NCBI RefSeq assembly: GCF_000392435.1 | Contig: NC_021219.1 | Location: forward strand, 900,001 to 932,000 | Direction: 5' to 3' | DNA from: Candidatus Saccharimonas aalborgensis | GTDB taxonomy: Bacteria > Patescibacteriota > Saccharimonadia > Saccharimonadales > Saccharimonadaceae | Length of the DNA stretch: 32,000 nucleotides | Part shown: in pieces, positions 5,085-17,927 of the stretch | Position numbering within the stretch: the first letter of the stretch is position 1 | Layout of the letters: each line of letters opens with the position of its first letter | Program-made: the position numbers and the translations under genes | The notes under the pieces: model-generated | Told to the model about the DNA's origin: nothing | What the model saw: the letters and a program-made list of their open reading frames with translations, nothing else | The model's database searches: none

Positions 5085-7487
5085 CTAGTTAGTTTGACCA
5101 TGCCAGGCTTCTTCCTCCGTCTTGACAAGGCCACGTGCTGCGGGCCACACCCACGCATCAAGTTCCGGCAGGTCGATACCATTGGCTTTGATGTATTCAG
5201 TATTTTCGTCGATCTTTGCTTTGTATTTTGCGGCGAGATGCTCGGCTTCTTCAAATGGCATCACACCATCGTGGCCTAATTGTTTGAAAGCAGCAATCAC
5301 CAGGTCGTAGCGACTGGTCTCATTTCGGACGTGCATGTCAAATGGCGTAGTTGTGCTGCCAATCTCTTTGTAACCGCGGACGTCAAATCGTGTCGAATCA
5401 ACCGCGTAATTAAAGAGTACCGACTTGATAGTTTGAGGATAGCCATGGAAGTTGAAGATTACTGGTTTGTCCTCGGTAAAGATATGATCAAACAGTTTTT
5501 GGTCGGCGGTGTTGTTGAGTGTCCCAAATCCCATAGTGGTGAGACTACTGACATTGACACAGCGCAGTCGCACCTCGGGGCGTTCAGTTTTGATGATATC
5601 GATGGCGGCCATAATCTCTTTTGTTGGGTAATCACCTGCTGCGGCCATGACGAGATCGGGATTATCATCTGATGCGAAGTCCCACACTAGCACTCCTTGA
5701 TCGATTTGTTCGCGAGCTTTATTTACGTCAAGCCAGCGTGGCTCGACGGTTTTGCCGGCGACAATAGCATTGATCTGACGCACGCTCGTGAGCATTTTCT
5801 CGATGACAACAAGCGAGCAGTTACCATCTGCCGGGAAATAAACATCGCTGAAATTGCTTTGGCGACGGAGTAGGTCGTCGATAAAGCCAGGGTTTTGGTG
5901 GCTAAAGCCGTTGTGATCCTGGCGCCATCCACTACTTGTGAGGATATAGTTGATGCTTGGAATCGTCCCTCGCCAGGAAACACCGCGGCTCTGCGTCAAA
6001 AACTTGGCGTACTGATCGACCATACTACTCACTACTTGCAAAAATGCTTCATAACTGGCAAACATAGCATGACGGCCGGTCAATACATAGCCCTGCATGA
6101 GTCCTTGCATATTGTGTTCGGAGAGCATTTCCATGACTCGACCATCTTGGGAAAGATCCTTATCCCAGTCGCGCAGCGGCCATTGCCAGCTACGAGAAGT
6201 TGCTTTGAATATATCGTCAAGCTTATTGCTATACGTTTCGTCTGGAGACATAAATCGAAAGTTCTTCGTCTCGGCATTGAGGCGAAATACCTCCTCGAGA
6301 TAGAGGCCGGTACGGCGCATCGAGCTACTGCCCATCGTACCTGGTACGGTGGCGTCTTCGGCAAATTGCTCGACAGATGGAAGTCGGAGTGGTGTGTACA
6401 CACTGTCGCCGCCATGAGCATGCCGGCTTCTGCCCATGCGTTTCTCTGGATTTTCTGGCAAAATATCACCTACGAAGCTACCAAAGCCCTGCTCTTCACT
6501 AAATAGTTCGCTAAACTTGTAGCCACCCAACCACTCGTTGAGCATAGCTAGTTGGTGTTCGTCGGTTTTTGCTTCGGTCAGAACTACCTGGTGCGCTAGG
6601 CAGTTTCCCTCGATCTTATCCCCATCAAGTTCTTTTGGCCCTGTCCAGCCCTTGAGGGTACGCATGATAAGCATTGGCAGACGCGGGCAAACGGTGTCTT
6701 GAGAGACTTTTAGCTCCTCGATGGTCGTATGAGCCCAATCGAGTGCTTCTGCCATACGATCATGGGCTTCGTTTTCGTCGCAGTCGGTGGTATCGACAAT
6801 CCGCGGTTCATAGCCATAGCCGCTAAAGAGCGTCATCAATTCGTAATTGCTCATGCGGCCATAGATAGTTGGTTGAGAAATCTTATAGCCATTGAGGTGA
6901 AGAATTGGCAAGACCACACCGTCTTTGCGCGGATTGACGAGTTTATTGAGATGCCACGCACCGGCAGTTGGACCCGTCTCGGCTTCGCCATCTCCGACAA
7001 GACAGGCAACGATCAGGCCGGGATTATCGAGGATAGCGCCATAGCTGGTACTTAGACTATACCCCAGCTCACCTCCTTCGAGGATAACCCCGGGGGTCTC
7101 GGGATTTGAGTGACTTGGGTAGCCGTACGGCCAACTAAACTCACGGCACAGACGACGGATGCCATCGAGATTGACTGGAAGCGAGGGGTCAAAATGAGTT
7201 AGCGTCCCCTCGAGGAAGAGATTTGCCTGAAGCGCAGGGAATCCATGCCCTGGACCGAGGACAAACATCATGTCTTGGTCGTATTTTTTTGCAAAACGAC
7301 TGAGGTGCGCATAAGCAAAGTTGATGCCTGGCCCACTACCCCAGTGTCCAAGAAGTCGGCTCTTGACGTCATCAAACGTTAGCTCACGCTTCATAAGGTG
7401 GTTATCTGCTAAAAAAATTTGAGCGACTGTCAAATAATTGACAGCACGCAAATATTGGCCCATTGAGTGTTTTTCGTGATTATTCAT
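5085..7487 (-). CDS. xfp: Xylulose-5-P/fructose-6-P phosphoketolase
   Basis: Motifs GHWGSGPGINF, EGGELGYSL and GDGEAETGP; about 800 aa. I prefer the start MNNHEKHSMGQYL at 7487, because a TATACT -10 box at 7498-7503 lies 10 nt upstream, over the longer ORF-track start at 7532. Confidence 0.9.
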   Translation of the reverse strand: MNNHEKHSMGQYLRAVNYLTVAQIFLADNHLMKRELTFDDVKSRLLGHWGSGPGINFAYAHLSRFAKKYDQDMMFVLGPGHGFPALQANLFLEGTLTHFDPSLPVNLDGIRRLCREFSWPYGYPSHSNPETPGVILEGGELGYSLSTSYGAILDNPGLIVACLVGDGEAETGPTAGAWHLNKLVNPRKDGVVLPILHLNGYKISQPTIYGRMSNYELMTLFSGYGYEPRIVDTTDCDENEAHDRMAEALDWAHTTIEELKVSQDTVCPRLPMLIMRTLKGWTGPKELDGDKIEGNCLAHQVVLTEAKTDEHQLAMLNEWLGGYKFSELFSEEQGFGSFVGDILPENPEKRMGRSRHAHGGDSVYTPLRLPSVEQFAEDATVPGTMGSSSMRRTGLYLEEVFRLNAETKNFRFMSPDETYSNKLDDIFKATSRSWQWPLRDWDKDLSQDGRVMEMLSEHNMQGLMQGYVLTGRHAMFASYEAFLQVVSSMVDQYAKFLTQSRGVSWRGTIPSINYILTSSGWRQDHNGFSHQNPGFIDDLLRRQSNFSDVYFPADGNCSLVVIEKMLTSVRQINAIVAGKTVEPRWLDVNKAREQIDQGVLVWDFASDDNPDLVMAAAGDYPTKEIMAAIDIIKTERPEVRLRCVNVSSLTTMGFGTLNNTADQKLFDHIFTEDKPVIFNFHGYPQTIKSVLFNYAVDSTRFDVRGYKEIGSTTTPFDMHVRNETSRYDLVIAAFKQLGHDGVMPFEEAEHLAAKYKAKIDENTEYIKANGIDLPELDAWVWPAARGLVKTEEEAWHGQTN

Positions 7488-7580
7488 GCTAATGCTTAGT
7501 ATACACTGTATTGCTAGTAGTTGAAAATACATAAAAAGCGTATACTAAATACATAGTAGCGATACGTGAGGAGGTAGTGT

Positions 7581-7985
7581 ATGGTAAGCATCAAGTCTAT
7601 CGAGGGAATCGGACCAGCGTATCAGGAAAAACTCTTGTCGATCGGTATACGCACCACAGATCAATTACTTGAAGCCGGTGCCACCTCTACTGGTCGTATG
7701 CGTATTGCCGATGAGGCCCACCTCTCTGAAACACAGGTAAAAGAATGGGTTCATCGGGCTGATCTCCTGCGCATTCACGGCATTAGCCATGAAGTCGCTG
7801 ATCTTTTAGCGCGTGTTGGCGCTTGTACTGTTCCCAAACTTGCCTATCGTCAAGCGATGTCGCTACACGATGATTTGGTTAGCTACAACGCCGCACATCA
7901 CGTTGCCAAACACGTTCCGACGGTTGGTGAGGTTGAGGCTATCTTGAAGGCAGCGAAGCGATTGCCAAAGATGATTCACCATTGA
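7581..7985 (+). CDS. DUF4332 (helix-hairpin-helix) domain protein
   Basis: Sequence IEGIGPAYQEKLLSIGIRTTDQLLEAGAT...GR, then ADLLRIHGISHEVADLLARVG. A GAGGAGG ribosome-binding site lies 7 nt upstream. Confidence 0.6.
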   Translation: MVSIKSIEGIGPAYQEKLLSIGIRTTDQLLEAGATSTGRMRIADEAHLSETQVKEWVHRADLLRIHGISHEVADLLARVGACTVPKLAYRQAMSLHDDLVSYNAAHHVAKHVPTVGEVEAILKAAKRLPKMIHH

Positions 7986-8013
7986 AAAGTAAATGATAAC
8001 CTAGAGGAGTAAT

Positions 8014-8595
8014 ATGGATTTACAAGCGCGTATCACGGACCTTATTAAAGGAAATATCAGCGATTCTATCAGTCGATCAACGGGGGTAAGCCAACCGGAT
8101 GTTGAGCGCGTTATCACCGCGGGATTACCGATGATCATTGGACAAATGGGCAATAACGCCAGCTCACCCGAGGGTGCGACTGCCCTTGACGCGGCAATCG
8201 GCAAAGACCATGCTGGTGGTTCACTCCTCGATAGCCTCGGTTCTCTCTTTGAGACGCCAACAACCCAGCAAGATGGGAGCAAGATCCTCGACCATGTATT
8301 GGGAGCAAATAGTACTGTAGTCACAAATCGATTGTCGAAGCAAACAGGGGTAGATCCGGCAGCCGTGATGAAGATATTGGCCTTCGCGGCACCGCTTATC
8401 ATGGCATTTCTAGGGCGCGAGAAACAATCACAAAACCTCGATGCTGGCGGCATAGCGGACATCTTGAAGGGTCAGCGAACACCAAATGGTAGCCTTCTAA
8501 CTGAGCTTGCTTCGACCGTGCTGACTGCTTCAGGATCAAAAAAATCCGGCGGTTTGCTCGGATCGTTATTGAACGGCTTATTTGGTCGGCGATAG
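8014..8595 (+). CDS. DUF937-like protein
   Basis: 193 aa. The pattern GVSQPDVERVITAGLPMIIGQMGNNASSPEGATALDAAIGKDHAGGSLLD matches the DUF937 pattern as I remember it. A Gly/Leu-rich tail follows. Confidence 0.5.
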   Translation: MDLQARITDLIKGNISDSISRSTGVSQPDVERVITAGLPMIIGQMGNNASSPEGATALDAAIGKDHAGGSLLDSLGSLFETPTTQQDGSKILDHVLGANSTVVTNRLSKQTGVDPAAVMKILAFAAPLIMAFLGREKQSQNLDAGGIADILKGQRTPNGSLLTELASTVLTASGSKKSGGLLGSLLNGLFGRR

Positions 8596-8605
8596 TGTAT
8601 CGCGA

Positions 8606-8818
8606 CTACTGTTCATCTGCTGGAGATGGTTTAGAAAAAGTTTCAACTGCGACAAATGCAATATGACCAAGCGGTAGACCGCCGCGTGTTTGCTGAACCT
8701 CGCTCGTACCCACTCTTGGATAAATAAACACATCTGGTGAACCTTCACACTGAACTGGCTGTCGCGTGTGGTCGATAGGATCGCCATGAATTGATTTTGG
8801 GGTATGCATTTCAGACAT
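8606..8818 (-). CDS. Small hypothetical protein (70 aa)
   Basis: The ORF-track entry 8606..8833 is trimmed to the MSEMHTPK start at 8818, because the upstream ATGs overlap the -10 box. I recognise no family. Confidence 0.35.
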   Translation of the reverse strand: MSEMHTPKSIHGDPIDHTRQPVQCEGSPDVFIYPRVGTSEVQQTRGGLPLGHIAFVAVETFSKPSPADEQ

Positions 8819-8828
8819 AAGTATAGAC

Positions 8829-8857
8829 ATCATACACTAAATCGTTGATACTGTCAA
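8829..8857 (-). promoter_or_regulatory. Sigma70-type promoter TTGACA-N17-TATGAT, 10 nt upstream of the ATG at 8818
   Basis: The minus strand reads ttgaca gtatcaacgatttagtg tatgat gtctatactt ATG. Confidence 0.55.
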
Positions 8858-8874
8858 TGCCTATGCTGTTCCGT

Positions 8875-8993
8875 CTAAATCTCACCACCTCCCCACTCCG
8901 AACACCGGCCCGCCGCTAACTGATTAGCCTTCGCCTTGGCGGGCCTTGGCCCATCAGGGCCAACTGTTCGTCGGAGAAGATGGTGCGATTTAG
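8875..8993 (-). ncRNA. Unclassified structured RNA candidate (long closing stem plus two apical hairpins)
   Basis: Read on the minus strand, the closing stem pairs CUAAAUC.GCACCAUCUUCUCC..CGAACA with UGUUCG..GGGGAGGUGGUG.GAUUUAG. Hairpin 1 is UUGGCCC-UGAU-GGGCCAA (8946-8963). Helix 2 pairs GGCCCGCC with GGCGGGCC (8907-8945) and encloses GCUAA-UCAG-UUAGC plus a 9-nt bulge. Three G-U pairs on the minus strand would be A-C mismatches on the plus strand. The element is GC-rich compared with its flanks. Confidence 0.45.
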
Positions 8994-8999
8994 GTTATC

Positions 9000-9572
9000 C
9001 TACGGCTGGCGACCAATTTCGTAAGAACAAATATGAAAATTATTTGGGGCAGTTGTGTTGGTGACGATTGCATACCCCCCGATCGTACTCGGGCACGTGC
9101 CTTTGTCGCTAATGACCATATCGATCCGGACACTTTTGCTATCTGATCCACCCGTAGGGTTAAAATATGCGCCCCGATACCAATCATTTGGACTACTTAC
9201 GATGGCGGTTTGCATAGCTGGGGTGGGTTCACTACTCATATAGGGGCTCAGTGCCGTACTAAATGTACTATCACGAACAATTCCAGTGCTAGCTGATGAT
9301 TGCCTACATTGGTAGCCGGACATGTCAGCCTCACTCACACCATATTTATAATTAGTTCCAAGACAGCTCGTCATTGAGGGGAAACTGCCATTTCGAGCTT
9401 TGTACATCTGGATGGCTTTTACCCACTGGTTGACAGCAGTAGCTGTTTGACTATCGCGCGCTCTTGCCGAGGCAGTGCTGTATGACACGACACCAATAGT
9501 GGCAAGAATGACAATGATCACGATCACGATGACGAGTTCGACAATGGTAAATCCGCTTTTGCTTTTTGTCAT
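9000..9572 (-). CDS. Type IV pilin / pseudopilin (prepilin-type N-terminal methylation domain)
   Basis: N-terminus MTKSKSG/FTIVELVIVIVIIVILATIG: a G-F cleavage site, Glu at +5 and a hydrophobic helix. Confidence 0.85.
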   Translation of the reverse strand: MTKSKSGFTIVELVIVIVIIVILATIGVVSYSTASARARDSQTATAVNQWVKAIQMYKARNGSFPSMTSCLGTNYKYGVSEADMSGYQCRQSSASTGIVRDSTFSTALSPYMSSEPTPAMQTAIVSSPNDWYRGAYFNPTGGSDSKSVRIDMVISDKGTCPSTIGGYAIVTNTTAPNNFHICSYEIGRQP

Positions 9573-9609
9573 AGCATCAGTATAGACAGGTACGCAGTAT
9601 AATAAAAGG

Positions 9610-10323
9610 GTGAAACGTCTTGTAAAGAGTCATCAGCAACACTTTTTGAAGTATACGGGTCTCATCGCTGAGCTTATTGGTCATAGCACTATCCGTCCTC
9701 GTGATACGGTGGTTGATATCGGTGCGGGCAGCGGCGCGATTACTGCGGTCTTGGCACGTCGAGTGCACCAAGTTATTGCTTATGAGAACGAACCTGCAGC
9801 GGCAAAAAAACTCCGAAACAATATGCGGCAATTTAAAAATGTTGAGGTTATCGAGGAAGATTTTTTGAAAAGCTCTCTCCCGACCGTGCCTTATAAGGTA
9901 TTCGCAAATATTCCATTTTCCCAAAGTTCAGCCATTGTGCGTCGGCTCACCGAGGCACAGGTGGCTCCACGCGCAATTTATTTGATTGTCCAAAAACAAT
10001 TTGCGCGCAAACTCCTTGTCGAGAGTGACTATTTTCATGGCGCACTTGGTATTTCCATCGCGCCGTGGTGGCAGGCGCGGATTCGACGGCCCCTACGACG
10101 TACTGACTTCACCCCTCCGCCAGCAGTTGATACGGTGTTGCTTGAACTAAAACCACGAGAACCCGCTCTGCTGCCTCTGGAACAACGGGCTGATTTTATG
10201 AAGTTTATTGAGCAGTGTTACGCCGACCCACGGTACTATCAAAAAATCGGTGCACCTAAAGACAAGAAGCCGTCTCGCGTTAACGCTAGGCAGTGGGTAA
10301 ACTTATTTCAAAAAGCTATGTAG
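9610..10323 (+). CDS. Erm-type rRNA adenine N6-methyltransferase family protein
   Basis: GTG start, 237 aa. Motifs QQHFL, VVDIGAGSGAIT, YKVFANIPFSQSSAIVRRL, IYLIVQKQFARKLL and PPPAVDTVLLELKPR. Size and motif spacing resemble ErmC more than KsgA. Confidence 0.6.
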   Translation: MKRLVKSHQQHFLKYTGLIAELIGHSTIRPRDTVVDIGAGSGAITAVLARRVHQVIAYENEPAAAKKLRNNMRQFKNVEVIEEDFLKSSLPTVPYKVFANIPFSQSSAIVRRLTEAQVAPRAIYLIVQKQFARKLLVESDYFHGALGISIAPWWQARIRRPLRRTDFTPPPAVDTVLLELKPREPALLPLEQRADFMKFIEQCYADPRYYQKIGAPKDKKPSRVNARQWVNLFQKAM

Positions 10324-11314
10324 ATTTTAAAACGCGCAGCAGCTCATCGACTGATTCATCAAGTTGAAATTGTTTTTTGGCGTGATCACGTTCTTTCTTG
10401 GTGGCTTGACCAAGTGCAACGGCTTGCTTGATGCCGGTGAGGAGTGCTAATGGACTCCGCGGTTCGACTAGCGTCAGTAGCCCGCAGTTTGTTTCGGGCA
10501 GGCCACCAACATTACTGGCGACAACTCTACAGCCCGCGTGTTGTGCTTCAATCGAAAGCATGCCAAACGGCTCCGCAAAGACCGACGGCATCATGAGAAT
10601 ATCACTATGTGCCAAGAGCCTTGCCATTTGTTTGACTGATTTTTGCGCCGGCATGAGTTTTGCATATGGATAGTCCCGTAACATACGTGCAATTTCGCGA
10701 CCAGTGCCAACGTGCAACCCGGCCGTGACGAGTGTGACGTGGTAGCCGTTATGCCGCATGTCTTTGCTGTGCATCATTTCGAGGATAGTATAGATGCCTT
10801 TTTCGGGGTGGAGTCGACCGGCAAAGACGATGCGCGTGCGCTTAGTGGGTTTGCTGCGCGTCATGCTGCCATAGACCGGGTCGGCAAATGGCAACACGAT
10901 ATGGATACGGGCGTACGGTATATCTAGGTATAGCGCCCACTGCTGACCGCTATATACGCTGGTCGCAATGATAGTTCGACCGACGATGTAGAGCTTGTAT
11001 CGGTCACAGTCGGAGTCTTTCGGGATCGAGCAATGCAATATGATGGCGGCCTTGTGGCGTGTCGGTACATTGTAGGCTTTGTTGACGAAGACTACAGTGC
11101 CCGGTAGTTCGCTGATGTGTGCTTCGCTCCCGAGTGCAGTAAATGGAATGTCGGTGAAATCTTGTCGACCATCTTTGGTGCCGTGGCCGAGTGTCACTAC
11201 TTGGGCATCTATTCCGCGCCGTCGCAGCTCGCGGATGTGTCCTGCGGTGTAGGTTTCGGACCCACCAGTACCAGCGACCATCGGTTCACCGGGTGGCCAG
11301 ATAAATGAAATCAT
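10316..11314 (-). CDS. Glycosyltransferase family 4 (GT-B)
   Basis: The C-terminal motif EPFGMLSIEAQHAGCRVVASNVGGLPE is typical of GT4. Confidence 0.8.
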   Translation of the reverse strand: MISFIWPPGEPMVAGTGGSETYTAGHIRELRRRGIDAQVVTLGHGTKDGRQDFTDIPFTALGSEAHISELPGTVVFVNKAYNVPTRHKAAIILHCSIPKDSDCDRYKLYIVGRTIIATSVYSGQQWALYLDIPYARIHIVLPFADPVYGSMTRSKPTKRTRIVFAGRLHPEKGIYTILEMMHSKDMRHNGYHVTLVTAGLHVGTGREIARMLRDYPYAKLMPAQKSVKQMARLLAHSDILMMPSVFAEPFGMLSIEAQHAGCRVVASNVGGLPETNCGLLTLVEPRSPLALLTGIKQAVALGQATKKERDHAKKQFQLDESVDELLRVLKST

Positions 11315-11526
11315 GAGAAACCCCTTCTTTTAAGTTGTGTATTGAGCCAAAGGACTGTAAGAAGAGATATTTGGTAGTGAAATAAGAGGTCTTAGAATGA
11401 TCTAGCTACTTCTAGTATAACACAGTTGTAACCGAGTGACTGGATCGCCCTCTTTCCGTAGACATGACAGTAAAAGCAATGGCAAAGTTCACTTTTTTGT
11501 TGTGGCTTACCTCTTATTTTAAAAGA

Positions 11527-12201
11527 CTAAATGCTAAGTGATTTTGCGATATTCTCGAGATCGCTAATTATCTCCTTGGCTGAAGCCGACGAGTAATCAA
11601 TATTTGTTGCTGTTTGGGCTCCAGGAACTATTTGGTAGAGATGAATATACAGCTTCTTTCCGTTTAGCTGCAAATAGCAATTATCACCCGAGGGTGCGCA
11701 GGTCGCGAGAAATAACGTCGTTGGTGTTTTGAGGATATGTATAGTGGTGCCAGCCTTGGTTTTGACAGAACTGACAGCAGTAATCCCTTCATCAAATCTT
11801 TGTTCCATTAAGTTTGACTCAGAGCCTTCGTGTACAAATGAGCTAATAAGGTATTTTTCATTACCGATCGTCTTGACGATATTATATGGCTCAAACACCT
11901 TTTCGACTGACCAGCCTTTCGGTAGCACCACGGTGTAGAAGTCTTTAGAGGTTGTCCCATCACTTTTGCTTGGGTAAATTGAAACTGCACCAGAAGTATC
12001 TTTAGGTTGCTCTGTTTCTGTCGTTGTTTGTGTAATTTTTGTTTGATCAGATTGCTGTGCACTATTGCTGGCTGTGTTGTCGCTCGTCTTCGTTTCCTTC
12101 TGTTTATTAAAGAACATCCATCCTAGCACGCCAATCAACCCGACAACAACCACAACAAGCACTATTTCAACTACGCCAAACCCTTTTACGTTTTTACTCA
12201 T
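11527..12201 (-). CDS. Type IV pilin-like protein with a Thr/Ser/Gln-rich linker
   Basis: N-terminus MSKNVKG/FGVVEIVLVVVVVGLIG (Gly, then Phe, with Glu at +5), followed by the low-complexity stretch TKTSDNTASNSAQQSDQTKITQTTTETEQ. Confidence 0.65.
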   Translation of the reverse strand: MSKNVKGFGVVEIVLVVVVVGLIGVLGWMFFNKQKETKTSDNTASNSAQQSDQTKITQTTTETEQPKDTSGAVSIYPSKSDGTTSKDFYTVVLPKGWSVEKVFEPYNIVKTIGNEKYLISSFVHEGSESNLMEQRFDEGITAVSSVKTKAGTTIHILKTPTTLFLATCAPSGDNCYLQLNGKKLYIHLYQIVPGAQTATNIDYSSASAKEIISDLENIAKSLSI

Positions 12202-12381
12202 ATTCTTGCCCTTTCGATATAGTTTATTAGCCCTTACGCTTAGTTATAGCACAGGTAGGGTTTACAAGTTAAGAAAAACTACCACACGATAGGTTAGTTC
12301 TACTTTGAGTCATTGGCTATGTTACAATGATCCGTGGTTTATAAAATAATTACAGGTTCGCTTTTTCTGTTAAACACTTCA

Positions 12382-13248
12382 ATGAATACTCTAGTGGAAA
12401 AGTTAAGCTCTCATCAGCAAAGTACTCGCAATAAATGGCGTCACGAGCGACCACTGTCGAATCATGATTGGTGGATGTATCTTAGTCTACTGTTCTTGGT
12501 AATCGGTACTTTGCTAATGATTCCGCTTGGCCAGAAAATAGAGGGCGTGACTGTTCTGGGGGTTGGCGCACTGATGACCTTTGGTGCAACCCGTGCGTAT
12601 AGTCGACATGCGCTACTCATATTCTTGTCTATTGCAATTATTGGGGTTGCGCCAATAGGTACGAGTATAGATCTTATGCACATAATATCGATGGGCGCGT
12701 TGATAGGGCTAGCTGTGCTCATACCGTTTGTGGTAACACGATTCTTGTACAAAGAATCTGTAATACGCTTTCCAATCGGACGGCACACTTGGACCCGGGG
12801 ACACGTTGGGTATCTGCTTTTGGCGTGTATATTGAGTTATCTCATATTGCCGTATTGGATGCAGACGACGGGAGCGTATCAGAATTGGGTAGTTGAGAAT
12901 GACCCATACCATTTATTCATTTTGTTTCTTGGTACGAACGGCTTAGGCATTTGGGATGAGCTGTTCTTTATTGTTACGGTATTGGCGCTACTTAAACGGC
13001 ATATGCCGTTTCATCAAGCAAATCTTGTACAAGCACTACTATTCACCTCATTTTTATATGAGCTAGGGTTTCGTGGCTGGGCTCCATTTATTATCTATCC
13101 CTTTGCGCTGCTCCAGGGTCTAGTATTTCGTCGGACCGATAACCTGGTATATATTATTGCGATTCACCTGACGATCGATTTCGTATTGTATTTAGCTTTG
13201 ATCAATGCCCATCATCCTCAACTATTAAATATTTTTATAACAAGGTAG
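12382..13248 (+). CDS. CPBP/Abi-like intramembrane protease family protein (divergent), paralog 1
   Basis: Polytopic membrane protein with GIWDELFF, FTSFLYELGFRGW and AIHLTIDF (EE-like and HxxxD motifs). I prefer the ATG at 12382 (MNTLVEKL) over the ORF-track GTG at 12334. Confidence 0.45.
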   Translation: MNTLVEKLSSHQQSTRNKWRHERPLSNHDWWMYLSLLFLVIGTLLMIPLGQKIEGVTVLGVGALMTFGATRAYSRHALLIFLSIAIIGVAPIGTSIDLMHIISMGALIGLAVLIPFVVTRFLYKESVIRFPIGRHTWTRGHVGYLLLACILSYLILPYWMQTTGAYQNWVVENDPYHLFILFLGTNGLGIWDELFFIVTVLALLKRHMPFHQANLVQALLFTSFLYELGFRGWAPFIIYPFALLQGLVFRRTDNLVYIIAIHLTIDFVLYLALINAHHPQLLNIFITR

Positions 13249-14310: not shown

Positions 14311-14355
14311 AAGAAAATATCTCTTTTGTTCTTGTGGCAAAAGAGATATTTTCTT
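14311..14355 (-). terminator. Hairpin (17-bp perfect stem) inferred to be the displaced native terminator of tRNA-Gln
   Basis: AAGAAAATATCTCTTTT (14311-14327) pairs with AAAAGAGATATTTTCTT (14339-14355) around an 11-nt loop. On the minus strand the hairpin is followed by a U-rich tract (UUUUCUUUUCC, partly within the stem). It abuts the TTGGCT junction core. Confidence 0.55.
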
Positions 14356-14516
14356 GGCTCAATTTTACAACGAAGCTAGAACCTATTTCCAACACAAAGT
14401 CTAAACCAAGCCCCGCCAGACCTGACTTTTACAATTTTTCTATCTTTTACCCCCGCCGTACATCATTTTTAATTGAGAAAAAGTCAGGTCTGTCGGGTCG
14501 GTTGCGCTGGAGTGCA
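14354..14516. repeat. Repeat block L (163 bp), the reverse complement of 15559-15721
   Basis: Manual alignment gives 162/163 identity; the single mismatch is 14420 versus 15655. Confidence 0.9.
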
Positions 14517-14565
14517 GAATACCACACAATATCATGAGCTAACAGAGGTAAGAGCGTCGTAAGAG

Positions 14566-14594
14566 TTGACATAATAATAAAGTTAGTGTATAAT
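14566..14594 (+). promoter_or_regulatory. Consensus sigma70 promoter TTGACA-N17-TATAAT for the cargo gene
   Basis: Sequence ttgaca taataataaagttagtg tataat, then 10 nt, then the ATG at 14605. Confidence 0.65.
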
Positions 14595-14604
14595 GTCATT
14601 ATAC

Positions 14605-15393
14605 ATGTCTGAATGGAAAATAGCGACTCCCATAAACAAATTTGAGCACCTGGATAGTGGCTCACAGATTGACATTGTCTCTGTTGTTCATGTTGGCACG
14701 CCTGACTACTACAGAAAGTTAGGCAATTATATTACGACGAGACAAAATAATGGCTTTACTGTTCACTATGAGACAATTTCATCAGATGATAAAATGACTC
14801 CACCGACAAATCCTATAGAATCTCTAAAAACTAGAGTTCAAGAAGCCAGAACTGACATATCTGCCGATAATCTTATATTAGTAGAAGACTATAGCAATTA
14901 CACTACTCAGTGTGACTCTGATATGTTTAATATTTCAGATGCTGAAAATCACGATATCACAGAGGCTGATTACGTCCGCCGTTCAGGCCTTTTAACACTT
15001 ACGGGAAATTGGATTAATGCGCGCCGTTTAAACCATAAGCTAGAAAAAGCTGCCAACAGAGGATCGGATATTATGGACGAACTTATTTTTGACTTGCTCA
15101 AAAAGGACATAGATGCGATAGCAAACGGCACGCGGCGTAATAAAAGACGGGACGGGGTTACAATACATGCACGCAATCAGATAGCACTGGAAGGCATAGA
15201 TACTGCACTAGCCGATAACTCAGCGGCCAAGCTGTTACTGGTTTGGGGCATTGGACACCTTGCGGGACTGCAGTCTGGTCTAATATATAGAGGCTACGCG
15301 CTTACCGACCATGAAGAAGTTGACGTAGCAGTAAACTATGCTCAGCTGAGGCGTAATATGGACACAAATGAACTAGCGCTACAGCGGCCGTAA
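14605..15393 (+). CDS. TraB/GumN (TIKI-superfamily)-like protein, the element's cargo
   Basis: C-terminal AKLLLVWGIGHLAGLQSGLIYRGYAL matches the GAGHLxGxxGL...GY motif of GumN/TraB. The N-terminus has IVSVVHVGTPDYY...HYE. I moved the start from 14593 (which lies inside the -10 box) to 14605. Confidence 0.45.
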   Translation: MSEWKIATPINKFEHLDSGSQIDIVSVVHVGTPDYYRKLGNYITTRQNNGFTVHYETISSDDKMTPPTNPIESLKTRVQEARTDISADNLILVEDYSNYTTQCDSDMFNISDAENHDITEADYVRRSGLLTLTGNWINARRLNHKLEKAANRGSDIMDELIFDLLKKDIDAIANGTRRNKRRDGVTIHARNQIALEGIDTALADNSAAKLLLVWGIGHLAGLQSGLIYRGYALTDHEEVDVAVNYAQLRRNMDTNELALQRP

Positions 15394-15742
15394 GTGAAAC
15401 TTGGTAGATAATCGGTCATTATAAATAGACGCCTACCTAGCGTTGAGTAATGACCCAAATAGCGATGTAGCATGTAACTGACCATAAGGCTACAAGTATA
15501 AAGAATTGGAGCGCGGCATACGCTTTGGATTACTATCTATAATCATATTCAACTGCCATGCACTCCAGCGCAACCGACCCGACAGACCTGACTTTTTCTC
15601 AATTAAAAATGATGTACGGCGGGGGTAAAAGATAGAAAAATTGTAAAAGTCAGGGCTGGCGGGGCTTGGTTTAGACTTTGTGTTGGAAATAGGTTCTAGC
15701 TTCGTTGTAAAATTGAGCCAAATTCGGACTTTTTAGGAATTG

Positions 15743-15769
15743 GTCGCCCATTTGGGCGGCTTTTTCTTT
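15743..15769 (+). terminator. Intrinsic terminator inside block C
   Basis: GUCGCCC-AUUU-GGGCGGC followed by UUUUUCUUUG. Confidence 0.55.
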
Positions 15770-15823
15770 GGTTGCGCAGAGCGCAAGCCAGATGTTTTCT
15801 TGGGGGGGGGAATTGGAATTGGT

Positions 15824-15850
15824 GCGCGGCAGGAGCCGCGCTTGTTTTTA
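15824..15850 (+). terminator. Second intrinsic terminator inside block C
   Basis: GCGCGGC-AGGA-GCCGCGC followed by UUGUUUUUA. Confidence 0.55.
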
Positions 15851-15872
15851 GACCGCCGCAGGCGGTTTTCCT

Positions 15873-15881
15873 TGGTATAAT
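15873..15881 (+). promoter_or_regulatory. Possible extended -10 promoter (TGgTATAAT) for the recombinase
   Basis: tggtataat lies 122 nt upstream of the recombinase ATG. I saw no convincing -35 box. Confidence 0.3.
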
Positions 15882-16003
15882 GAAAGAGCAACCAACCAGT
15901 GAAGAATTGTTTTATTTGAGGGCTTTAATGGCCGTCTTGGACAATCTAGTTCTTCTAGGTTGGTTGCACCAGGACGGTCATTTAAGTTTTAGGGGGTGAA
16001 ACT

Positions 16004-17680
16004 ATGCGCGAAAAATACTTTTTATACGCTCGCAAGAGTACAGACGTAGAGGACAAACAAGTTTTGTCCATTGAGGCGCAAATTGCCGAACTTCGGAAAT
16101 ACGCCAGAGATAACGGCTTGCAAATCGTAGACACCATTATTGAAAAACGCACCGCCAAAATACCAGGTCGCCCGAAGTTCGGATCAATGCTTGCTCGCAT
16201 TGAAGCTGGCGAAGCCAATGGCATTATTGCGTGGCACCCCGACAGATTGGCGCGTAACTCGGTGGACGGCGGACAAATTGTCTATTTGTTAGACCAAATG
16301 TGCCTACAGGTGTTAAAGTTCCCAACATTTTGGTTTGAGAATACCAGTCAGGGTAAGTTTATGCTGTCTATTGCGTTTGGACAGAGCAAGTATTATGTAG
16401 ACAATTTGTCTGAAAACACCAAGCGCGGTTTGCGCCAGAAAGTCAGGCGCGGCGAAATGCCCGGACTTGCACCGCTTGGTTACATAAATGATGTACGTAC
16501 CCGCACCATTGCTGTAGATAAACGGCGTGCGCCGCTGGTTGTATCGGCTTTTGAGTTATACAGTAAAGGCGACAAAGGCTTACAGGAAATTGCCGACTAT
16601 TTTGCAGATAACGGTATAAAAACCAGCGGTGGCTTGCCGCTGAAAAAAGACCAAATCAAATATATGCTGACAAATCCGTTTTACTACGGACATTTTAGAT
16701 ATGCTGGCGAAGTCTACGAGGGCAAGCATGCGACGATTATGTCCAAGAAACTGTTTGACGCGGTGCAATCCGTACTGGAACAGCGCGGACACAAGCGAAA
16801 AGGCGCAAATGCGCCACAAGCCTTGTGCGGCTTACTGACCTGCGGCGCGTGCAATATGGCGATTACTGCCGAGAAAAAGATAAAACACCAAAAGAATGGC
16901 AATATACACGAATATACCTATTACCGTTGCACGCGCAAAAGCAAAATTATGAAATGCACCGAGCCAGCTGTAACCGAACCGCAACTTGTGGCGCAATTAT
17001 CTGACATTTTGCAGGGCTACGCCCTGCCGAGTGCGTGGGCAAACACACTAAACAAAATGCTGAACGAGGACGAGAAAACAGCCGAGCGAACCACTGGCGC
17101 ATTTATAGCCCAAGCACAAGACAATGTGCGTAACTTGCAAGGCAAGTTACAGCGACTTCTTGACGGCTATTTAGACCAAGATATTGACCAGCCAACATAC
17201 AAAGCCAAACAAGCCGAACTGATGAGCGAAAAGAAGTCGCTGGACGAGCAAATTGGCAAGCTAACGCTTGCCGCTAATGCGTGGGTTGAACCTATGCGCC
17301 AGTGGCTAAAAATGGCTGTTTCTCTCAAGAAAATAGCAGAAAACGCCGAGCCGACAGCCATAAAAGCCACGTTTGCTGAAATTGACGGATTGAACCTCTT
17401 TTTATCTAAAAAACAAGCGCGGCTCCTGCCGCGCACCAATTCCAATTCCCCCCAAGAAAACATCTGGCTTGCGCTCTGCGCAACCAAAGAAAAAGCCGCC
17501 CAAATGGGCGACCAATTCCTAAAAAGTCCGAATTTGGCTGGGGTGGAGGGATTCGAACCCCCGAATGCATGGACCAAAACCATGTGCCTTACCACTTGGC
17601 GACACCCCATTATTGCAACAGCAAATTGCTTCAGCAGTATACCACGAGAGGCGTTACTATTGCTATCCCCCGCTGCTTAG
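16004..17680 (+). CDS. Large serine recombinase (integrase)
   Basis: Motifs YARKSTDVEDKQVLSIEAQ (catalytic Ser region), HPDRLARN, a recombinase domain, the zinc ribbon CGLLTCGACN...YYRCTRK and a coiled-coil region. The ribosome-binding site is AGGGGGTG. The ORF has no stop before 17680, so it crosses block R, attR and the antisense of the tRNA. Confidence 0.9.
   Translation: MREKYFLYARKSTDVEDKQVLSIEAQIAELRKYARDNGLQIVDTIIEKRTAKIPGRPKFGSMLARIEAGEANGIIAWHPDRLARNSVDGGQIVYLLDQMCLQVLKFPTFWFENTSQGKFMLSIAFGQSKYYVDNLSENTKRGLRQKVRRGEMPGLAPLGYINDVRTRTIAVDKRRAPLVVSAFELYSKGDKGLQEIADYFADNGIKTSGGLPLKKDQIKYMLTNPFYYGHFRYAGEVYEGKHATIMSKKLFDAVQSVLEQRGHKRKGANAPQALCGLLTCGACNMAITAEKKIKHQKNGNIHEYTYYRCTRKSKIMKCTEPAVTEPQLVAQLSDILQGYALPSAWANTLNKMLNEDEKTAERTTGAFIAQAQDNVRNLQGKLQRLLDGYLDQDIDQPTYKAKQAELMSEKKSLDEQIGKLTLAANAWVEPMRQWLKMAVSLKKIAENAEPTAIKATFAEIDGLNLFLSKKQARLLPRTNSNSPQENIWLALCATKEKAAQMGDQFLKSPNLAGVEGFEPPNAWTKTMCLTTWRHPIIATANCFSSIPREALLLLSPAA
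17405..17539. repeat. Repeat block R (135 bp), the reverse complement of 15716-15852
   Basis: Identical by manual alignment except C6 (17448-17453) versus G9 (15802-15810), and A6 versus T5 near the outer end. Confidence 0.9.
17485..17512 (-). terminator. Element-borne intrinsic terminator 23 nt downstream of the tRNA-Gln 3' end
   Basis: This is the minus-strand copy of the 15743-15769 hairpin plus its U-tract, inside block R. Confidence 0.5.
17535..17609 (-). tRNA. tRNA-Gln (anticodon UUG), CCA encoded
   Basis: The minus strand reads UGGGGUGUCGCCAAGUGGUAAGGCACAUGGUUUUGGUCCAUGCAUUCGGGGGUUCGAAUCCCUCCACCCCAGCCA. It folds as a cloverleaf with anticodon loop UUUUGGU, and closely resembles E. 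coli tRNA-Gln (U1-A72, G73). Confidence 0.9.
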
Positions 17681-17711: not shown

Positions 17712-17927
17712 ATGGTAAAAAAATATATGCACGAGAGGCCTGTCCAAAAATCAGGTAATTTTCTGAGAACCTTGTTGATCTGGCTCGGTATCTTGATCGG
17801 TATAGCGACATTTGTCGTTGAATACGTTTGGCCTGGCAATGAAAAGGTAGTCCTCTACTTGTTCGCCATGTTGGCGGTAGTATATGGTGTGGTGTTGCTT
17901 GATTTTGATGTTGATGACGATGATTAA
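17712..17927 (+). CDS. Small membrane protein (71 aa, 2 TM, acidic DDDD tail)
   Basis: A GAGGAGGA ribosome-binding site lies just upstream of the ATG at 17712, followed by MVKKYMHERP... and two hydrophobic helices. The ORF-track start at 17565 lies inside the tRNA. Confidence 0.5.
   Translation: MVKKYMHERPVQKSGNFLRTLLIWLGILIGIATFVVEYVWPGNEKVVLYLFAMLAVVYGVVLLDFDVDDDD

Follow-up and report, generated by a model that had tools for sequence, protein, structure and literature searches.

A 32,000-nucleotide stretch of Candidatus Saccharimonas aalborgensis DNA (contig NC_021219.1, positions 900,001 to 932,000; hereafter the window, in whose coordinates positions are given) carries a 3.2-kb integrated element (14354-17539) whose recombinase gene leaves the element and continues in antisense across an adjoining tRNA-Gln gene. 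We consider it very probable that the attachment site of this element, attP, lies in its integrase gene, at the 3' end: integration at the tRNA removes the native C-terminal tail and leaves an altered, likely attenuated enzyme, and the tail is restored wherever the arm of attP that belongs to the gene (B') is rejoined to its partner (A).

The open reading frame (ORF) in question, 16004..17680 (+), encodes 558 amino acids as integrated and stops at 17678-17680 in the ORF listing. It reads the antisense of the whole tRNA-Gln gene (ttg; 17535-17609 (-) by ARAGORN, with an Rfam tRNA match of 61 bits) and 71 nt beyond; as the frame crosses the tRNA, codons 512-536 come from its antisense, and codons 513-558 with the stop (17540..17680 (+)) form a junk tail from the tRNA antisense and from host spacer. 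That 46 codons should stay open is unremarkable by itself, with a chance of (61/64)^46 = 0.11. What lies beyond chance is a pattern of three junctions (marked here by a slash), attL (X/A), an inverted attP (A'/B) and attR (B'/tRNA), which recurs in more than 35 independent loci.

These junctions are built from two abutting pairs of inverted repeats. Arm A (14354..14516 (+), 163 nt), the P' arm of attP, recurs inverted as A' (15559..15721 (-)) with 99% identity. Arm B' (17409..17539 (+)), the P arm, encodes recombinase codons 469-512, and its inverted copy B (15716..15849 (-)) is 100% complementary to it save for homopolymer lengths and gives a tblastn match (96%) to residues 469-513 of the recombinase. 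A hexamer core, TTGGCT/AGCCAA, stands at all three junctions: at attL (14354..14359), in the internal, inverted and intact attP (15716..15721) and at attR (17534..17539), where it is the antisense of tRNA positions 72 and 73, the CCA end and one further nucleotide. Insertion fell exactly at the CCA end of tRNA-Gln(UUG), a gene that is intact, its 3' end having been rebuilt by the core. Codon 512 (GCT, 17537-17539) lies inside this crossover core, 14 codons before the native stop, which means that integration split off the last 14 codons of the gene, now found at attL and at the spare inverted attP. The predicted attP-form tail, QFYNEARTYFQHKV followed by a stop, does occur twice, at 14360-14404 (+), where the 14 codons are followed by TAA and hold GCTAGAACC, a mimic of the tRNA T-arm, and at 15715-15671 (-); joined to codon 512, it gives a protein of 526 amino acids. 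The coordinates in the earlier note on this locus, which gave 558 residues, 46 antisense codons, repeat-encoded codons and codon 512 in the core, were all correct.

Only homopolymer lengths distinguish the two B arms. The G run of B (15802-15810) exceeds the C6 run of B' (17448-17453) by 3 nt, which keeps the recombinase frame, and the T5/A6 runs at the inner ends of the arms differ by 1 nt.

The recombinase and its two kinds of C-terminus

On its sequence, the ORF at 16004-17680 is a large serine recombinase (LSR). Pfam finds, in the order typical of this group, Resolvase (PF00239, residues 6-151, E 7.8e-22), Recombinase (PF07508, residues 175-261, E 2e-16) and Zn_ribbon_recom (PF13408, residues 274-329, E 5.5e-7), and in the catalytic block around S12 the residues Y8, R10, K11, S12 and T13 are invariant in 21 homologs. 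Marks of the group that sequence can show are present: a resolvase-type catalytic domain, a Recombinase domain and zinc ribbon with a coiled coil, hybrid att sites, and a register shift between half-sites. In an AlphaFold2 (AF2) model of a homolog of native form, P0016 (whose numbering runs about 2 above that of the window protein), long helices span 345-392 and 398-427. The integrase chains of SPbeta, phiC31, Bxb1 and LI match this model with Z scores of 8.7-9.8, at a high global root-mean-square deviation, and the alignment of these solved structures reaches about residue 478-497 of the model.

The earlier note had placed the end of the recognisable protein near residue 465 and had suggested comparing ORF ends among homologs. 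This comparison moves the boundary: the top 120 homolog clusters (66-93% identity) align as far as residue 511, with W488, L491, K497 and A499 invariant. Conservation as far as residue 511 indicates that B' is genuine coding sequence and B its inverted copy.

Past the crossover, two kinds of ending occur. The attP form, in about 55 related loci, has a final stretch of 14 residues of the pattern x-[F/L/I]-Y-x-x-A-R-T-Y-F-x4-stop. A tail of this kind (x[F/L]Y-x-x-A-R-T-[Y/H]-F-x4-stop, here called the FY tail) is also found in about 16 of the 120 nearest homolog clusters, and its length is 14 residues in 12 of 14 cases. About 92-97 of the same 120 clusters have tails read from tRNA antisense, such as AGVEGFEPPNAWTKTMCLTTWR (from tRNA-Gln), AEREGFEPSV..., VPRAGVEPATL...CSIQLSYRG and VGNRGFEPLTSSTSM. 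Tails other than FY vary in length between 0 and 137 residues (median 27) and are unrelated in sequence; such a spread of lengths at tRNA junctions is as expected for unselected read-through. When the spare attP is read as B'/A, an FY tail results in all 55 of the 55 loci, and in four further loci, whose middle sites are degenerate or masked, none is found. Of 54 unique reconstructed tails, 45 have their stop at codon 15. Even a single 90%-identity cluster can hold different ends: that of the window contains forms of 558, 515 and 568 amino acids, and two same-cluster pairs set an FY tail against a tRNA tail (P0129 versus P0004, and P0016 versus P0133).

The proposal that the C-terminus depends on the state of the element is thereby borne out across the family, in which the attP form has a conserved 14-residue tail and the tRNA-junction forms have variable, unconserved ones. 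The 526-residue ending predicted for the circular form, present at the two places given above, is the conserved, native-looking end of the family. The companion claim, that the ORF has no stop of its own, describes the integrated copy and fails for the attP form, which has a native stop past the crossover.

Several features suggest that the native tail is under purifying selection as protein. Its codons vary in a nearly synonymous manner (Tyr as TAC 46 times and TAT 6; Arg as CGA 32, AGA 20 and CGC 1; Thr as ACC 46, ACT 6 and ACA 1; Phe as TTT 38 and TTC 15), and its stop is fixed although codons 10-13 are free. As these counts are not phylogenetically independent, constraint at the protein level is strongly suggested, not proven. 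In the AF2 model of P0016, the tail forms part of a terminal helix (509-527, pLDDT about 80) with the crossover in its first turn; the native tail is thus predicted to complete the terminal helix.

The element family and its target sites

Related loci were drawn from 60 related genomes, from one representative genome per species (78 loci) and from metagenomes (80 loci); genome G321, which is unpublished, supports none of the conclusions. The recurrent layout runs X/A, cargo (0.9-4.6 kb), A'/B, promoter and leader, LSR, and B'/tRNA, with the tRNA in antisense, and was found in Saccharibacteria as well as in metagenome-assembled genomes (MAGs) labelled Morani-, Nomura-, Pacei-, Harrison-, Shapiro-, Gottesman- and Woesebacteria. 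Among the 154 loci with a near-complete gene end, an antisense tRNA adjoins the 3' end of the LSR gene in 107, representing 33 isoacceptor types, and a sense tRNA lies upstream of the LSR in a single one. The layout is also present in the single-contig genomes G000, G035 and G014, and finding the same junctions there argues that it is not a product of misassembly. Judged from these sequences, attP inside the integrase 3' end is the rule in a family spread over Patescibacteria, also known as the candidate phyla radiation (CPR), that targets the 3' ends of many tRNA genes.

Comparison of the three junctions in 36 loci defines the attachment sites. The reverse-complemented middle site has the same left arm as attR, attL and the middle site have one right arm in common, and only 3-9 nt occur in all three. 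The minimal core is the antisense of tRNA C74, the discriminator base N73 and N72, and its two variable bases match the element's own tRNA in every locus compared: the cores are TGGCT at Gln and Asn, TGGTG at Leu, Gly and Val, TGGTA at Arg, and TGGAG at Thr and Lys. This agreement suggests that the core bases next to CCA (the discriminator and position 72) choose the target. Arm A further contains GCT[C/A]GAACC, which copies the antisense of the T-arm, GGnTTCGAACC, but is set 4 nt farther out: GAAC(C) lies 21 nt after TGG in arm A and 17 nt after it in the tRNA arm in 20 of 27 loci, a comparison made for right-hand arms only. In phiC31 the corresponding ZD register shift is 5 bp, and such an outward shift is a hallmark of attP versus attB half-sites in LSRs. 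Target choice by a guide RNA was considered and rejected; the variable stems of the leader (see below) pair with each other and track the phylogeny of the elements, not the identity of the tRNA.

Relative to its three closest relatives, which sit at one tRNA-Asn and two tRNA-Gln(CTG) sites (four different tRNA sites with that of the window), the recombinase gene has a dN/dS of 0.09-0.13 at a dS of 0.39-0.60. Within elements the arms are 98-100% identical, and B and B' are identical in each of the closest elements. Identical arms within elements that differ from one another at such values of dS imply that the arms are homogenised or regenerated far faster than substitutions accumulate.

Two other identities for the element were rejected. 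A temperate phage or prophage does not fit a two-gene element, and a search of 2.9 million viral contigs gave only 3 distant matches (24-42% identity). A plasmid of the 2-micron type is similar in geometry alone: there is no conserved replication gene, the cargo varies and the enzyme is a serine recombinase.

Other serine recombinase loci in the same genome (G000) show different arrangements. A decayed relic of a related element (C1:172413-175368; L006, L197) has lost its recombinase gene and kept an A'/B junction; its leader is 89% identical to window positions 15875-15988, and its inverted A-type arms are only 76% alike. Two further, distantly related serine recombinase genes (27-36% identity) lie at C1:126976-128800 (L011/L194) and 150100-152210 (L012/L195); one stops 13 nt into the antisense of tRNA-Gln(CTG), and the other reads through that of tRNA-Gly(GCC). 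Both loci are without twin inverted repeats and have a 28-34 nt direct repeat of the 5' part of the tRNA, 180-290 nt upstream. No twin inverted repeats were found at the other LSR paralogs of this genome.

The element in the window has one gene besides the recombinase, a cargo ORF of 266 amino acids (14593..15393 (+)) with no Pfam match and a promoter-like site, TTGACA-17-TATAAT, beside it at 14566-14594. Elsewhere, the module between A and A' holds one to five unrelated genes in either orientation (L028, L039, L046, L052, L063 and others), among them genes for a zinc alcohol dehydrogenase, an alanine racemase, a short-chain dehydrogenase (SDR), a PPDK-like protein and a PGDYG protein. A conserved second gene that might encode a recombination directionality factor (RDF) was sought and none was found, no cargo family occurring in more than 3 of 38 elements.

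Between B and the recombinase gene lie a promoter with the -10 box TATAAT (TGgTATAAT, 15876..15881 (+)), kept in an alignment of 58 loci, and a pseudoknot-like mRNA leader (15888..15981 (+)). Stem a of the leader (10 bp, 15888-15897 with 15958-15967) encloses the 5' strand of stem b (13 bp, 15928-15940 with 15969-15981), the 3' strand of which ends about 10 nt before the ribosome-binding site. Over the 58 loci, stem a is 99% paired with compensatory changes at 9 of 10 pairs and stem b 94.7% paired with such changes at 8 of 13; many pairs are G-U on the sense strand. Rfam has no family for this leader. A 39-codon upstream ORF was considered as a small Xis-like protein and rejected, since the compensatory changes and G-U pairs indicate that the region acts as structured RNA.

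The left arm X of the former attB (14311..14355) contains a hairpin with an 18-bp stem that is probably the displaced terminator of the tRNA; the X arms of other loci likewise have a hairpin and T-run, without conservation. The earlier note had also suggested that expression of tRNA-Gln might suffer from transcription and translation across it, which is speculative; the tRNA gene is intact. On the strand of the tRNA, B' supplies two terminator-like hairpins (17417..17513 (-)) that start 22 nt past the tRNA 3' end, and B has terminator-like hairpins on the plus strand at 15742-15761 and 15824-15841. No terminator-like site was found on the plus strand from the LSR stop to the next host gene. 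A small host ORF at 17713-17927 (+), of about 71 amino acids and with a good ribosome-binding site, begins 33 nt past the recombinase stop and encodes a hydrophobic protein with an acidic C-terminus; read-through transcripts from the element could reach it.

Possible consequences of the tail exchange

Integration fused codon 512 to the antisense of tRNA-Gln, where the frame happens to stay open for 46 codons. As the native tail is predicted to complete the C-terminal helix and appears to be under selection, we infer that the integrated enzyme is structurally altered. Most likely its activity is weakened or altered in some other way; it may, for instance, be shut off once the element has inserted, and such a shut-off would shield the chromosome from rearrangements involving the spare attP. 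The native form would return once B' and A were rejoined, whether by excision, by inversion or by a second insertion at attR.

On excision, B' would again adjoin A, and the native tail would be recreated. Two further routes to a native-type tail leave the element in the chromosome: the LSR module may invert between B and B', or a second element may enter at attR. The inversion would aim the gene at the spare attP and yield the same 526-residue product; geometrically it regenerates both sites, and so could run both ways. Direct evidence of this inversion was not found, and nearly every assembled locus has the gene facing the tRNA. Insertion at attR is illustrated by L201 (G141:C2:344000-362000, 5762-13078), on a 587-kb contig, where two elements lie head to tail at one tRNA-Leu(CAG) in the order X/A1, cargo, A1'/B1, LSR1, B1'/A2, cargo, A2'/B2, LSR2 and B2'/tRNA-Leu. 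LSR1 ends in ...LVRFYAHARTHFSTKCEK and a stop, a native-type tail supplied by the A arm of the second element. To judge from this arrangement, the array most simply arose when one element inserted at a junction of the other, attR or attL, which fits the lack of conservation among X arms; tandem arrays are also a likely source of the database proteins with FY tails on long contigs.

In a Shapirobacteria MAG (L090, 6757-8584), an LSR module consisting of B, the LSR and B', with arms 89% alike and without an A arm, is flanked by two convergent tRNAs, tRNA-Val(CAC) and tRNA-Leu(UAA). This single case may reflect a rearrangement between the spare attP and a second tRNA.

Several points weigh against an altered integrated enzyme or against the scheme behind it: (i) the GCT (Ala) and CGA (Arg) codons of the tail hardly vary at their third base, and the conserved tail block, about 27 nt after the core, matches the expected P' half-site, so part of the tail's conservation reflects a constraint on the DNA site, not on protein; (ii) the two AF2 models are of middling quality (mean pLDDT 67.5 and 57.7), and although residues 467-558 have a pLDDT below 50 in that of the 558-residue form, its alignment is shallower than that of P0016, which makes the difference in confidence between the tails weak evidence; (iii) the circular form is a prediction, none having been observed directly; (iv) an empty attB for this exact locus was not found in relatives, the NMO-like neighbour gene occurring in 3 of 40 genomes of the genus and the sole syntenic relative, G006, having a tRNA-Gln(CTG) there instead; and (v) the integrated isoform could be fully active.

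The first of these points leads to a serious rival, which we regard as possible though not probable: the overlap may be a neutral by-product of compaction, in which the coding sequence of a tiny element doubles as the P and P' arms and the exchange of tails either has no consequence for the enzyme or affects copies that have no further task once integrated. In favour of this, the tail codons that are conserved fall on the expected P' half-site and hold the T-arm-like motif that the enzyme presumably binds; some third codon positions are fixed; and the solved LSR structures align only to about 478-497, placing the last 30-50 residues in an extension outside the aligned core. Set against this are the mostly synonymous variation of the Y, R, T and F codons (TAC/TAT, CGA/AGA/CGC, ACC/ACT, TTT/TTC), the stop that stays at codon 15 while codons 10-13 vary, the confidently predicted terminal helix, and integrated genes that are intact, with a dN/dS of about 0.1. 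The earlier note suggested that the two isoforms could bias the direction of the reaction, the 526-residue form integrating (attP x attB) and the 558-residue form favouring excision (attL x attR), with no separate factor. By analogy this bias is plausible, because no RDF gene is conserved (the recombinase is the only gene common to the 38 elements, the cargo differing by locus), the tail is under apparent purifying selection and predicted to be structured, and the integrase of myxophage Mx8 reportedly takes on altered properties once integration has given its gene a new 3' end; in phiC31 the RDF is contacted by parts of the integrase that follow the coiled coil, the extreme C-terminus among them. 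The integrated tails, by contrast, have neither sequence nor length in common (0-137 residues from 33 tRNA species), and with tails this random a new function could arise only through loss of the native tail, not from the residues gained. We rate a directionality switch as rather doubtful; it is a narrower form of the attenuation that we favour, disfavoured only in that the new residues cannot matter.

A reversible flip is unlikely. Here inversion between B and B', not excision, would alternate a junk-tailed gene facing the tRNA with a native-tailed gene facing the spare attP. The spare attP is intact and universal, recombination of the inverted attP with attR would regenerate both sites and so be reversible, and the L201 array is simplest if an attR or attL junction served as target. 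The arms, too, speak for a flip, being 98-100% identical within elements despite the divergence between close elements and only 76% alike in the relic that lacks a recombinase. Yet the gene faces the tRNA in 107 of 154 loci, with a sense tRNA upstream in one; a tandem array accounts for the sole FY-tailed copy examined on a long contig (L201); on short contigs, an FY tail can reflect the path of the assembler through the repeat; and canonical LSRs do not recombine attP with attR. That the ORF itself is false, created by misassembly across repeats or by the gene caller, is scarcely credible. It is true that many homologs are found where a contig ends and that short-read assemblies break at inverted repeats of 130-160 nt, but three single-contig genomes have the same junctions, as do dozens of long contigs that independent studies produced.

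Loss of the tail on integration, with attenuation of the enzyme, thus remains the reading we prefer. A stronger version, in which the exchange of tails is a built-in control of an RDF-less clade of serine integrases, turning the enzyme inactive or excision-biased with a native end that the cell can rebuild through the spare inverted attP or a further insertion at attR, is put forward tentatively and is on present evidence improbable.

Relation to known systems and meaning

The closest functional precedent is the IntP/IntX pair of Mx8, a myxophage with attP inside int, in which integration creates a new 3' end (IntP becoming IntX) and altered properties have been reported (review PMC6070905, citing Tojo 1996 and Magrini 1999). 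In both systems the crossover lies inside the integrase coding sequence and integration supplies a new 3' end. Mx8, however, is a 49.5-kb phage with a tyrosine recombinase, whereas the element described here is non-viral, about 3 kb long and encodes an LSR, uses a CCA target at many tRNAs and keeps an inverted attP; only serine recombinase domains were found in its enzyme, which, on these sequence grounds, is an analogue of IntP/IntX and not a member of that group.

With the phage-type LSRs (phiC31, Bxb1, Listeria A118/LI and SPbeta SprA), the window recombinase shares domain order, a short core and hybrid attL and attR sites, and the outward shift of the attP motif is likewise comparable (4 nt here, 5 bp in phiC31). 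Those systems have attP outside the gene, a separate RDF for excision and single specific target sites; here, attP extends over the last 14 codons, no RDF candidate is conserved, tRNA 3' ends serve as generic targets, and a spare attP is retained. Archaeal integrases of the SSV1 type also have attP inside the int gene, which integration partitions, but they are tyrosine recombinases and their gene is split into two large parts, whereas here only the last 14 codons are detached. Gin of phage Mu and Hin of Salmonella are small serine recombinases encoded outside the invertible segment, and they exchange the variable ends of another gene. The segment between inverted recombination sites could here, too, exchange a C-terminal coding end; unlike in those systems, it is the constant part of the recombinase's own gene that may flip. 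In literature that we covered in part, and which leaves absence unproven, we found no description of such a design in serine integrases or of this family of CPR elements, which is apparently large and undescribed.

For sequence databases the immediate consequence is that hundreds of deposited CPR proteins annotated as site-specific recombinases have chimeric C-termini of tRNA antisense, which are not to be treated as protein sequence. The logic of target recognition, in which the attP arm copies a universal tRNA T-arm motif and the core bases match the target, might be put to other use. Serine integrases are valued as tools for genome engineering because they act in one direction and their reversal needs a separate directionality factor; if the tail matters, the enzymes of this family would add a self-contained switch, or a silencer of the integrase after a single use. 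And if the built-in control is real, these elements would write the state of recombination into the C-terminus of the recombinase itself.

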